Made by a program: the position numbers. This document shows positions 12,001 through 15,000 of a DNA stretch of 18,908 nt, piece by piece. This DNA is from a virus (taxonomy: Duplodnaviria > Heunggongvirae > Uroviricota > Caudoviricetes), in IMG/VR virus record IMGVR_UViG_2713897055_000006; one strand, 5' to 3'. The first letter of the stretch is position 1, and every line of letters begins with the position of its first letter.

Positions 12001-15000
12001 ACGCGATACGCCTGCTCTGATGGAAATACCCCGCAACCAGAGAGCCAGACATCACCACTGGCCGCAAGCGCACCAGATAAACGACGAATAGCGGTCTTAC
12101 TGACACCCGTTTTATCTGCCAGTTGTCGAAAAGTTTCTCGTCCGCTCAGGCGCACGAATTCCACAATGCGCGCCTTCACTTCTTCCCGCTCTTCTGGTGT
12201 AAATACTTTTGCCATAAGCGCCTCCGGCAATCACTTTTCCGATACAACACGGCGGGAAGAATCAGTAATCTGTCGAACAATATCCCGGTGCTTGTTCACC
12301 TCCCGCAGCGCGGCGCAGACTCGCTCCCACTTCTGAACATCACTTTTCGCCCTGCGCAGCGCCAGGTTTGCCCTGCGAAGGGACGGAAAAATCAGCTCAT
12401 CTGCTTGCGTTTCGGTAAACGATGGCAACGGCTGCACAATGTCCGCCACAGTTTCTGTTTTAATTTCTTCCTGTGTTGCGGCTTCCCGGACTGGTAACGC
12501 AGCACCTGCTGGCTGAGGAAAGGCCTTACCATCACTTTCCGTTACCAGCGCGGCTTTCGGCTCTGCTGGTAAATTATCGCCCGGCATGCAGTAACGAAAT
12601 TTATCGTTCTGATTAACGCGTGCCAGCCGCCCCGTTGCGGTTACCACCGCCAGCGTGGAGGCAACCTTGCGAGTACTGACGCCGAACTTACCCGCCAGTT
12701 CCTCACACGTTTTAGCACCATCCTGACCGATAAACTCAATCATCATGTCTGCGGTAACTTTTTGTTCGACCTCCCCGGTCAGCATATCCTGTGCTTCAGA
12801 TTTTACTGGCCGCTCTTCGGTTACCCGGGATTCACCTTCGCCAGCCAGAAACCAGGTGTGACCAGTTTTATCAACGACGCCATTTCTTTTGAGTTCCCAC
12901 AGCTCGTTGAGAACCTCTTCACGACTGATATCAAGTCGCGCGGCCAGTTCTACCGATGTGGCTTTTCCCATTGCTTTCAGTGCGTCAAATACGGTTTCCA
13001 TTAAAATTTCCTCCGACAAAATCGTTTCTCAGATTCAAATAAAACCAGCTGCCTTCCGGCGTTCGTATTCCTGTTTCAGCCGTTCAATTGGCGTTGGCCC
13101 TTGCGGGTGTTTCGCCCCTTCCAGTTGTCGTCGCACTGGCGGAACACTCATCCCGTTACCAACATGCTTTGCCCATTTCGTCAGTTGCCGTTCCGCAAGT
13201 CGTTTTAACTCACCCTGCGTCATCTGGCGCTCAATCCCTCTGGTACGCATTTCGAGGCAGATGTGGTACAGCACAGGCTGAGGCCACGGATATTTGTCGC
13301 TTCCGTCATATCGCCAGGACTCATCACGCCAGCGGCGGTACTCCTCCATCACAGCATCCACCGTCAGGCCAAATGGATTGGCCCCGCTTTCTGAAATCAG
13401 CGCCACAAACTCAGCCAGGTCCGGAGGCCATGTTTCACCCGCCCGGCAGCGGTCCATGCACTGGCGGCAGACCTGTCGGATTTGCTGTTCAGTCATCGCA
13501 CCAATCTGGGCAATCCAGAGCTTCGAAGGTGCGGCCCCGTTCTTCTGGGTCCAGCGGTTCGAATAAACCTCCCCCATGAGTTCCCACAGCTTCCAGACCG
13601 TTTCCGTCGCTGATAAATCCGTTTTCACGTTCCCACTGCTCACGTGCTGCCCGAATTTCCTGAACTGCCCGTGATGCGGTGCCACCTGGTGCTGCTGCAT
13701 GGTTTACCCCCTTGCTGACTGGCTTAACCTGCGCCCTGACGTGATTTACGTGACGGGCGAATTTCTGCTCCCACTGAACCTGCGTGAAAACTTTCCCCTC
13801 CGCTGCCCAGTAGTCCCGGAAAGCGGCAAGTTCAGCAGGTGTAAATTCCGGCTCCGGCAAAGCCATCCCCCACAACGCAGCCCGTCGTCGAAAATCCGGC
13901 GACGGATGCCAGTCATCGACCATCGGAAATTTCCCGATGGGTTCGCTCAGTCCATCCAGGGATGCAGGTTCTGCTGCCTGCAACGGCGTACCACTCGACT
14001 CACTGGTCGGAGTACTCTCGCGCACGTGCGCGTTATGTGTGGGGTTTAATTCTTTATCTGTATCTTTATCTGTCGTGACTCGTCGTGACATGTCGTGACA
14101 TATGCGTGACTCGTCGTGACACCCCTCATTCTGTTTTCGTAATTTTTCCCTCTCGCGCTGCGCTCTCTTGCGCTCTGCCGGGGATTTCGCGGTTTGTGAA
14201 ACGTTGCCATTGTCCTCTTTCAGTACCTGGCGTTTTTCCCATCCGGTGATTAAATCTCCATCAAGTACCCGCCCCTGCATTGCCTGTAAAATTGAATCAA
14301 TTACTTCTTCCGTCACATCAAGCGCACTTGCTAAATCTTCCGTCGTGACATCAATGTGACCACGTAGTGACACGCCGTGACATGTCGTGACATTTCGTGA
14401 CGCGCTCACCAGAAGGTGGATATACACTGCCATCACTGTTGCAATTGGCTGCCCTGACACCCTGGCAATTGTTCGCCACTTAGGGTCATTTGGCATGTCA
14501 TGCCATAATCTGAGCCAGGCGTTAGCCATACTCACCTCTTCTGATACCGAATCTTTTTACTCACAAATTGCCGGAAGTGATCCGGTATGAATATTGCGAG
14601 TCAATGCACAGCCACAATATTTCCTGCAGGGCCACCACGATTCATCTGGTTGAAACCAGCGATCGCCACTGCGACAAAATCATCAGCGTCTCTCACCAGT
14701 CGTTCCCGCGTCTCCACCAGCTCCCGAAAATAAGCTGAACTGTGGCTGCGCATTCGGGCCACCAGCAGAGGCGGCATTGCTTTTTCGATCGCTGGTAACA
14801 ACGCCTGAATTTTTTTAACCGCATCAGGAGTGTCTTTCTCCACCCAGCGGAAAATTTTCTGGGTATTGCGAGCCAGGGCTTCCGGATGGCTGTCGTCATA
14901 TAATTCCGGGAACGTCATACCAAGCTCAAAATAAGCCCGGGTTATTTCAGCTGCCGGAACTTTTTTCACCGTCCGGATGCGCCCAGGCATTCATCGCCAT

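Follow-up and report, generated by a model that had tools for sequence, protein, structure and literature searches.

A probable dual-coding overlap of 212 nucleotides between the initiator and helicase-loader genes of a prophage replication module

Introduction

Does one piece of DNA encode both the end of a replication initiator and the beginning of a helicase loader, in two different reading frames? The question is raised by two neighboring genes in an 18,908-nucleotide (nt) stretch of DNA from a member of the Caudoviricetes (IMG/VR record IMGVR_UViG_2713897055_000006), referred to at its full length as the window, which is an Escherichia coli prophage with 98-99% identity to prophages of strain 042 and others. 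Here, the open reading frame (ORF) of an O-like initiator continues in its own frame beyond the start codon of a P-like helicase loader. A preliminary description had put this out-of-frame overlap at about 210 nt and had left two alternatives: genuine dual coding, or an undetected insertion or deletion (indel) that altered the C terminus of O. The overlap is confirmed, at 212 nt (13489-13700). Dual coding is supported by the fact that both frames are open and conserved in homologues, whereas the indel alternative falls because the overlap recurs in homologous phages and prophages and in E. coli genomes.

Taking sequence comparison, predicted structures and the analogy to phage lambda together, we consider it probable that the overlap is genuinely translated in two frames, that constraint is divided along its length, and that it forms an initiator-loader interface cassette. 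The initiator would be translated through to the TGA at 13489, and translation of the loader would start separately, within the initiator gene, from a Shine-Dalgarno (SD) motif of its own and the ATG at 13700. In the first ~90 nt, selection would act mainly on an amphipathic C-terminal helix of the initiator, and the disordered N-terminal leader of the loader, the counterpart of lambda P domain I, would tolerate the sequence imposed by O. In the last ~120 nt, selection would act mainly on the first two helices of loader domain II, and the Gly-rich acidic disordered tail of the initiator would ride on the P sequence under weaker selection. In lambda, binding between the two proteins involves the C-terminal part of O and the N-terminal part of P (PMC6022878). 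By analogy, the common DNA would encode both sides of the initiator-loader contact, so that recombination could not part them and 'O tail + P' would move as one cassette onto different initiator cores.

Results

Geometry of the overlap

The features on which the argument is built are the following.

13489-14535, minus strand: O-like initiator ORF of 348 codons (GTG 14535, ATG 14529, stop TGA 13491-13489)
13035-13700, minus strand: P-like helicase loader ORF of 221 amino acids (aa), start ATG 13700-13698
13489-13700, minus strand: putative dual-coding overlap of 212 nt, O residues 279-348 over P residues 1-70 and two bases of codon 71
13707-13713, minus strand: SD motif of P, AAGGGGG, 6 nt 5' of the ATG and within the O codons Lys-Gly-Val
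13489-13491, minus strand: O stop TGA, spanning P codons Thr70-Glu71 (acT GAa)
13624-13677, minus strand: overlap part A, the predicted O-tail helix ASRAVQEIRAAREQWERE (O 287-304) over P codons 8-26
13500-13610, minus strand: overlap part B, predicted P helices 31-54 and 60-67 over O 309-345

According to the sequence and the ORF listing, the P frame is +1 relative to O, with P codon position 1 falling on O codon position 2; the P ATG takes its A from the middle of the O codon CAT. RefSeq relatives begin the O-like ORF at ATG 14529. In the AlphaFold2 (AF2) model of P, residues 1-29 are disordered, with predicted local distance difference test (pLDDT) values below 50, and helices are predicted at 31-54, 60-67, 71-86 and onward. 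The AF2 model of O residues 190-348 (159 aa) comprises a confident DnaT domain (pLDDT ~90), a disordered linker, a helix at positions 98-115 of the query, equal to O 287-304 (pLDDT 60-70), and a disordered tail (308-348). In part A, the O helix thus lies over a P leader that is poorly conserved and predicted to be disordered, and in part B, the P helices lie over the Gly-rich acidic O tail, which is also predicted to be disordered. Predicted order in one frame therefore lies over predicted disorder in the other, in both halves.

The initiator tail

Alignment of the O tails of 29 lineages brings out two elements. The first is a helix-like motif, S.A.Q..RAAR....R, recognizable in most lineages and weak in Vibrio phages D279 and K74; the window form is the ASRAVQEIRAAREQWERE stretch of part A. 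The second, present in most lineages, is a Gly-rich acidic extension of the form G..G...L(F)EPLD.EE(R/W)G...LD..DW.DD*. The O proteins of Baybae and PP270 terminate directly after the helix motif (AGERIREKFRNKGFDI*).

Selection in the two frames

If both frames are translated, each should leave its mark on the pattern of variation. Codon phases were compared in 19 sequences differing by more than 3%, with P at least 59% identical to window P and a DnaT-type initiator core. Mean pairwise diversity at codon positions 1/2/3 was 0.26/0.245/0.50 in the O-only flank, read in the O frame, and 0.16/0.11/0.495 in the P-only part, read in the P frame. Within the overlap, the O wobble position was the most variable at nt 30-59 after the ATG (0.39 versus 0.13 and 0.17), an O-frame signature, and the P wobble position was the most variable at nt 90-209 (0.33-0.39), where the O wobble was nearly frozen (0.05-0.16), a P-frame signature. 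The codon periodicity analysis proposed in the preliminary description thus returned a signal for each frame. Even the dominant frame varies less than it does outside the overlap: P wobble diversity was 0.357 in the second half compared with 0.495 in the P-only part (Mann-Whitney p = 0.008), and O wobble diversity was 0.37 in the first half compared with 0.50 in the O-only flank (p = 0.0017). Purifying selection is hence detectable in each overlap frame and, judged by these substitution patterns, is split, acting on O mainly in the first ~90 nt and on P mainly in the last ~120 nt.

Openness of the frames was assessed by resampling, with synonymous codons drawn according to each lineage's own usage in 24 lineages with less than 90% identity between their overlap DNAs. 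With the P protein held fixed, 3.6% of the resamples per lineage (geometric mean) left the O frame open as far as its real stop, and with the O protein held fixed, 21.5% per lineage left the P frame open; as the lineages share ancestry and were picked for having the overlap, these per-lineage values are informative, but they cannot be multiplied, which limits the weight of this evidence for dual coding. In reality, both frames are open in 24/24 tested lineages. Both ORFs are therefore open and conserved across divergent lineages beyond chance.

The alternative that survives best, although we regard it as unlikely, is that the overlap is only partly functional: the O C terminus would work to about residue 306, and the last ~40 residues would be tolerated read-through. 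In part B, the codon signature is chiefly that of the P frame, and the O tail is predicted to be disordered. Furthermore, with Q-K-N-G invariant in P, the O frame can only read (E/K)(E/K)(R/W), and conservation of P accounts for most of the O-frame similarity in part B (null 10-33 versus real 24-52 BLOSUM units). O also ends early in four lineages, namely L121 and L108 and, directly after the helix, L134 and L135; its last ~40 residues may therefore not be needed. Against this alternative, the O stop falls at P codon 60.7-80.7 in 23/24 lineages (49.7 in L121), compared with the small fraction of resamples that stay open across the whole overlap. O-frame similarity between distant lineages exceeded the P-imposed null in 24/24 (mean z = 2.0; Vibrio 3.7, p <= 0.001), with no such excess in two lineages whose O stop lies just after the EER/EEW motif (z ~0.5), and the P wobble diversity is reduced, as described above. 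At the EER positions, Glu rather than Lys is kept, although this requires the rarer AAG Lys codon in P.

A further argument against mere read-through comes from two Erwinia genomes with orphan P genes, L114 2492-3118 (208 aa) and L120 2474-3043 (189 aa). Both lack an upstream initiator gene and adjoin ordinary chromosomal genes, and both keep the P motif intact; they may be domesticated or remnant loaders. The EER/EEW motif, PEERG in the window, has lost its EE to KK in L114 and to QK in L120, and stops have arisen in the L120 O frame. Where there is no O gene, its frame decays, and these loci serve as a natural control.

The P-imposed similarity and the early O ends nevertheless weigh against the explanation that we prefer, dual coding with divided constraint, and so do several other points. 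The O-frame excess in part B is modest, and weaker for the last ~40 O residues. The AF2 models are moderate in confidence (mean pLDDT 67.8 for P and 66.5 for the O segment). The binding-interface and linkage roles rest on the analogy to lambda, and because the O tail and the P N terminus share DNA, their co-inheritance is no independent evidence of an interaction. Finally, no ribosome profiling (Ribo-seq) or proteomics data for the overlap products were found in the open-access literature.

The loader and its true start

Where P begins decides how long the overlap is. The P-like ORF falls into the Phage_lambda_P family (Pfam PF06992; 59.3 bits versus a cut-off of 26, residues 55-188), and phrog_109, 'P-like helicase loader', matches its residues 19-221 (E = 2.2e-63). 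The P family profile matches the lambda P sequence in the Protein Data Bank (PDB; E = 4.2e-5), and the best Foldseek matches of the P model are the lambda P chains of 9oa1, a DnaB complex, with a probability of 1.00, E = 3.8e-5 and 196-212 aligned columns, but template modeling (TM) scores of only 0.40-0.48. Lambda P is composed of a disordered domain I (1-29), a compact domain II (~30-119), domain III and a C-terminal lasso (PMC12661323), and the predicted model of window P conforms to the lambda P fold and to this domain plan. On the strength of these profile and model matches, P belongs to the lambda P family of helicase loaders.

Two internal methionine codons compete with ATG 13700 as the start.

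13575-13577, minus strand: internal ATG, P Met42, a start consistent with the annotations of 177-181 aa
13494-13496, minus strand: internal ATG, P Met69, the start in RefSeq, which yields 153 aa and leaves an 8-nt overlap, ATGACTGA, with the O stop

In E. coli, RefSeq, annotated by the Prokaryotic Genome Annotation Pipeline (PGAP), starts 'replication protein P' at Met69, giving 153 aa (L008 1536-1997; L009 1536-1997), and one such 153-aa cluster is recorded on at least 1000 contigs. A database that uses other gene callers holds the P gene at four lengths or more (221-223, 177-181, 153 and 140 aa). Entries from other genera, with 177-181 aa, fit a start at Met42, and the records of Rac-SA53, the PPompW/Stx2a group and vB_Apl-pPE4 also begin P at an internal Met. 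It could thus be argued that only a short overlap is real, with P starting at Met69 or Met42 and the upstream P-frame ORF an untranslated accident, the more so as the ATG at 13496 makes a classic ATGA-type coupling overlap with the O stop.

We consider this very improbable. In alignments of 20 and 33 long forms of P, the N-terminal Met is present in 20/20 and is an invariant column in the larger set. Residues 2-33 are variable, and 35-68 are the most conserved stretch of the N-terminal half; W39, K53, N54, G55, P58 and W62 are invariant. All six are upstream of Met69, and W39 is upstream of Met42 too. The internal methionines themselves are less constant: many relatives have Leu in place of Met69, and some, Vibrio phages among them, lack Met42. 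A GGAGG, GGGGG or GAGG-type motif stands 6-10 nt 5' of the long-form ATG in most of the 41 distinct start contexts, and the SD is weak in a few, including the Vibrio D75/K248 type; in most lineages, the downstream gene has its own start signals inside the upstream gene. A start at Met69 would remove both predicted helices of part B, assigned to domain II by their position, and the Pfam and PHROG matches extend up to residues 55 and 19. An internal start is also at odds with the P-frame codon signature at overlap nt 90-209 and with the retention of the block by the orphan P genes. From the conserved Met and SD, the invariant residues upstream of the internal methionines and the predicted helices, we conclude that ATG 13700 is the P start, against the current RefSeq annotation; the proposal in the preliminary description that P starts at this ATG, preceded by a good ribosome binding site, is thereby borne out.

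The evidence from alignments and the predicted model says that the 221-aa form of P is the real one, and standard annotation hides the overlap by shortening the loader. The short forms have neither the disordered leader nor the first two of the predicted helices, which are a part of domain II by position, and in lambda P, domain II assembles the loader spiral (PMC12661323). Structural, interaction and defense-system work using the database sequence would therefore handle a truncated P.

Fusions, mosaics and the exchange of cores

If the overlap served a programmed +1 frameshift, its product would be an O-P fusion protein. An in-frame fusion does occur in one lineage, L127 1822-2760 (P0119, P0103), where a DnaT domain and the O-tail helix are joined to P domain II, with the frame switch at the boundary between the O-constrained and the P-constrained halves of the overlap. 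A match of phrog_15931 to both O and P points the same way. However, the prophage that carries this sole fusion has its O gene broken into fragments, and when phage records were searched by tblastn with the junction of the fusion, the best-matching ones contained no in-frame fusion; the two that span at least 80% of the query are ordinary overlap loci. The conserved SD and ATG favor independent initiation, and no slippery site was seen, though none was searched for; a frameshift function is thus very improbable.

In phrog_15931 (482 positions), the O-like protein matches positions 1-347 and the P-like protein 280-482; the family appears to merge both genes, probably through fused or mis-called members.

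Two P genes, L123 2393-3100 and L124 2195-2887, are mosaics with a junction near residue 93-110. Their N-terminal half is of the lambda/phi80 type (..ELRRQWLLAFxENGITTMEQV..) and their C-terminal half is that of the window family.

The type of N-terminal half in P and the type of initiator tail vary together. The lambda-type half stands behind a ..NNTDWIxGVFDExSF* tail with an overlap of only 4-17 nt, and the KNG-type half always stands behind a helix-type O tail. The 'O tail + P' unit, in turn, is found after several kinds of initiator core: cores ending in a DnaT domain with varied N-terminal parts, cores ending in '...DSFW..NILSPSKLR..', others that have no DnaT domain, and cores of the Vibrio D75 type.

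Distribution of the overlap

A 1601-bp region of this locus is matched in 2564/5426 complete E. coli genomes, with at least 80% of the query covered in 658 and a top identity of 99.8%; the best match reaches at least 99% in 129 records. Rac-SA53, the PPompW/Stx2a group and vB_Apl-pPE4, whose DNA is ~90% identical, have both ORFs open and the identical 212-nt overlap, and their initiators carry three different N-terminal parts.

A scan of one genome per GTDB species, queried with an alignment of long P proteins, returned 37 loci in Escherichia, Salmonella, Citrobacter, Enterobacter, Klebsiella, Pluralibacter, Phytobacter, Kluyvera, Pectobacterium, Buttiauxella, Dryocola, Samsonia, Limnobaculum, Serratia, Rouxiella and Erwinia. 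In 29/37, a long upstream ORF has its stop 149-242 nt 3' of the first P ATG, and the frame relation is identical throughout; L110 is counted here with the ATG that gives a 209-nt overlap, and its P-frame ORF has another ATG 545 nt 5' of the O stop. The 8/37 exceptions are three loci that share only the C-terminal half of P (lambda/phi80-type N-terminal half; overlaps of 17 nt, 4 nt and none), L123 with its lambda-type N-terminal half and 17-nt overlap, the two orphan P genes beside chromosomal genes, and two broken copies. At L119 ~2300-3150 (Leclercia adecarboxylata NCTC13032), two frame-breaking indels in the overlap mark a pseudogene or assembly errors.

Among phages, Citrobacter phage Chris1 and Klebsiella phage Kp4865-4 have overlaps of 215 nt. 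In Vibrio phages, P is ~30% identical to window P over the first ~130 residues only, and seven loci overlap by 212 nt (D75, K248), 194 nt (199E37-1), 266/263 nt (D279, K74) and 113/110 nt (Baybae, PP270), in the same frame relation as in the window. By these comparisons, the overlap is conserved from enterobacterial prophages to Vibrio phages. The Vibrio phage loaders (L006 2001-2660; L131-L135) differ from window P in their C-terminal part.

A sequencing or assembly indel in the window, for which nothing speaks beyond the unusual length of the overlap, is vanishingly improbable given the near-identical region in complete E. coli genomes and the recurrence of the overlap in independent species and phages, the very check, conservation of both frames in homologous phages, that the preliminary description had named.

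The initiator is not a lambda O homologue

What kind of protein ends in this tail? In near-identical E. coli genomes, the O-like ORF, with an identical stop, is annotated as 'DnaT-like ssDNA-binding domain-containing protein', and the last part of its core before the tail is a single recognizable domain.

13729-13929, minus strand: DnaT DNA-binding domain, O residues 203-269 (Pfam PF17948, E = 9.6e-18)

This domain is the sole Pfam hit of the O-like ORF at E <= 0.01, with no lambda-O family among the hits, and BLASTP finds no similarity between the O tail and lambda O (E = 0.8 or worse). PHROG matches of the protein are to 'replication initiation protein', 'primosomal protein' and 'replisome organizer' families, with the N-terminal region being the part that matches the replication-initiation and replisome-organizer families. 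The name 'O-like', used in the preliminary description, therefore holds as a functional label but not as a statement of homology: as far as sequence comparison goes, it is a label of position and role.

Within the O-like gene lie two clusters of (G)TCGTGACA(T) repeats with a 10-bp period, at 14062-14132 and 14342-14403, ~280 bp apart. Exact copies of TCGTGACA number five in the window, all inside these two clusters. The lambda origin of replication, ori, sits within O. By analogy, the repeat clusters are probably the iterons of a putative origin of this replication module. With its gene directly upstream of P and these putative iterons inside it, the initiator would resemble lambda O in its working.

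The preliminary description had also pointed to a stretch of the O tail, EIRAAREQWERENG, that resembles lambda P, and had judged the likeness probably coincidental. In a single BLASTP comparison, the stretch matches lambda P residues 64-77 with E = 6e-4. Homology was considered and rejected: the profile comparison of the O-tail family with the P family was null (probability 0.2%), and lambda P 64-77 corresponds by position to P-frame residues ~54-67. Because of this positional mismatch, the null profile comparison and the O-frame codon signature with which the stretch evolves, coincidence remains the best reading of the alignment.

Discussion

The overlap can be placed among known systems, first of all the lambda O-P module. 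The window shares with it the gene order and roles, a PF06992 loader with a lambda-P-like predicted fold and domain plan, and putative iterons inside the initiator gene. Moreover, the O C terminus and the P N terminus, which interact in lambda (PMC6022878), are the parts that fill the overlap here. Unlike the window genes, lambda O and P overlap by 4 nt only. The window initiator is not a homologue of lambda O, and the first half of domain II in window P carries a different motif, W.LW..M..IY.NRW..KNG..PS.LW, with BLASTP aligning lambda P only from residue 86 on. Modules of the phiV10/Tyrion and phi80 types likewise consist of an initiator with a DnaT (or other) domain followed by a P-family loader, and the C-terminal half of phi80-type P is 45-49% identical to window P. 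However, their overlap is 4-17 nt or none (4 nt as annotated in the phiV10 type, none in PdC23), the N-terminal half of their P is lambda-like, and their initiators end differently, with EAWEDFL* in the phiV10 type and NNTDWIxGVFDExSF* in the phi80-type L123/L124.

Overprinting in phages is known from lambda Rz/Rz1 and the overlaps of phiX174. As in these classical cases, two proteins share one DNA, a structured part lies over a disordered one, and synonymous variation is suppressed. In contrast to them, the overlap described here is terminal rather than nested, joins two partners of one machine, and has each gene as the constrained partner in one half. Long out-of-frame overlaps in phages are already known, and this one adds a case, not a new kind of system. 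It is a clean, deeply conserved, long same-strand overlap in tailed phages and prophages, where annotation pipelines disfavor such overlaps; unusual are the handover of constraint between the frames and the natural control in which one partner has been lost. We found no earlier description of it in the open-access literature.

What might the overlap be for? By analogy to lambda, it most likely fixes a matched initiator-loader contact as one unit that is exchanged whole; the pairing of each type of P N-terminal half with its own type of initiator tail fits this view. Effects on translation, for example of P initiation inside a translated ORF, are also possible. More tentatively, and with more doubt than confidence, the overlap could be an evolved linkage device: one segment would encode the O helix and tail together with the P leader and domain II, making the specificity pair inseparable in module shuffling, and the arrangement may extend to phage-derived VdhL loaders and their co-transferred upstream gene. 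If true, this would explain how initiator-loader specificity stays together in mosaic phages. The initiator helix ASRAVQEIRAAREQWERE is a candidate for the element that recruits the loader.

VdhL1 and VdhL2 are virus-derived helicase loaders of Vibrionaceae; some VdhL proteins are ~30% identical to some PF06992 proteins, and in Vibrio phages they have lambda-O-like or DnaD-like neighbors, with a conserved upstream gene that is co-transferred (PMC11087808). The paper describing them does not contain the word 'overlap'. VdhL loaders have replaced the chromosomal helicase loader in many Vibrionaceae. The Vibrio phage proteins identified in this analysis have the N-terminal ~130 residues in common with window P, sit behind O-like genes, and may correspond to the VdhL-type loaders of that study (PMC11087808). 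A word-indexed search with a Vibrio phage protein gave 19 proteins, and the named ones, a minority, are from Vibrio phages, with no chromosomal VdhL relative recognized among them.

The surroundings of the two genes (12231-13019, 14601-14990 and 15011-15292) are typical of Rac-like prophages. Downstream of P lies the gene of a DUF1627 protein. Upstream of O, a gene for a YdaT-family protein and a small ORF stand opposite a divergent repressor-like ORF. The module is of the ydaS-ydaT-ydaU type, but with a P-family loader, and the small ORF holds the place of the YdaS-family or transcriptional regulator gene of near-identical genomes.

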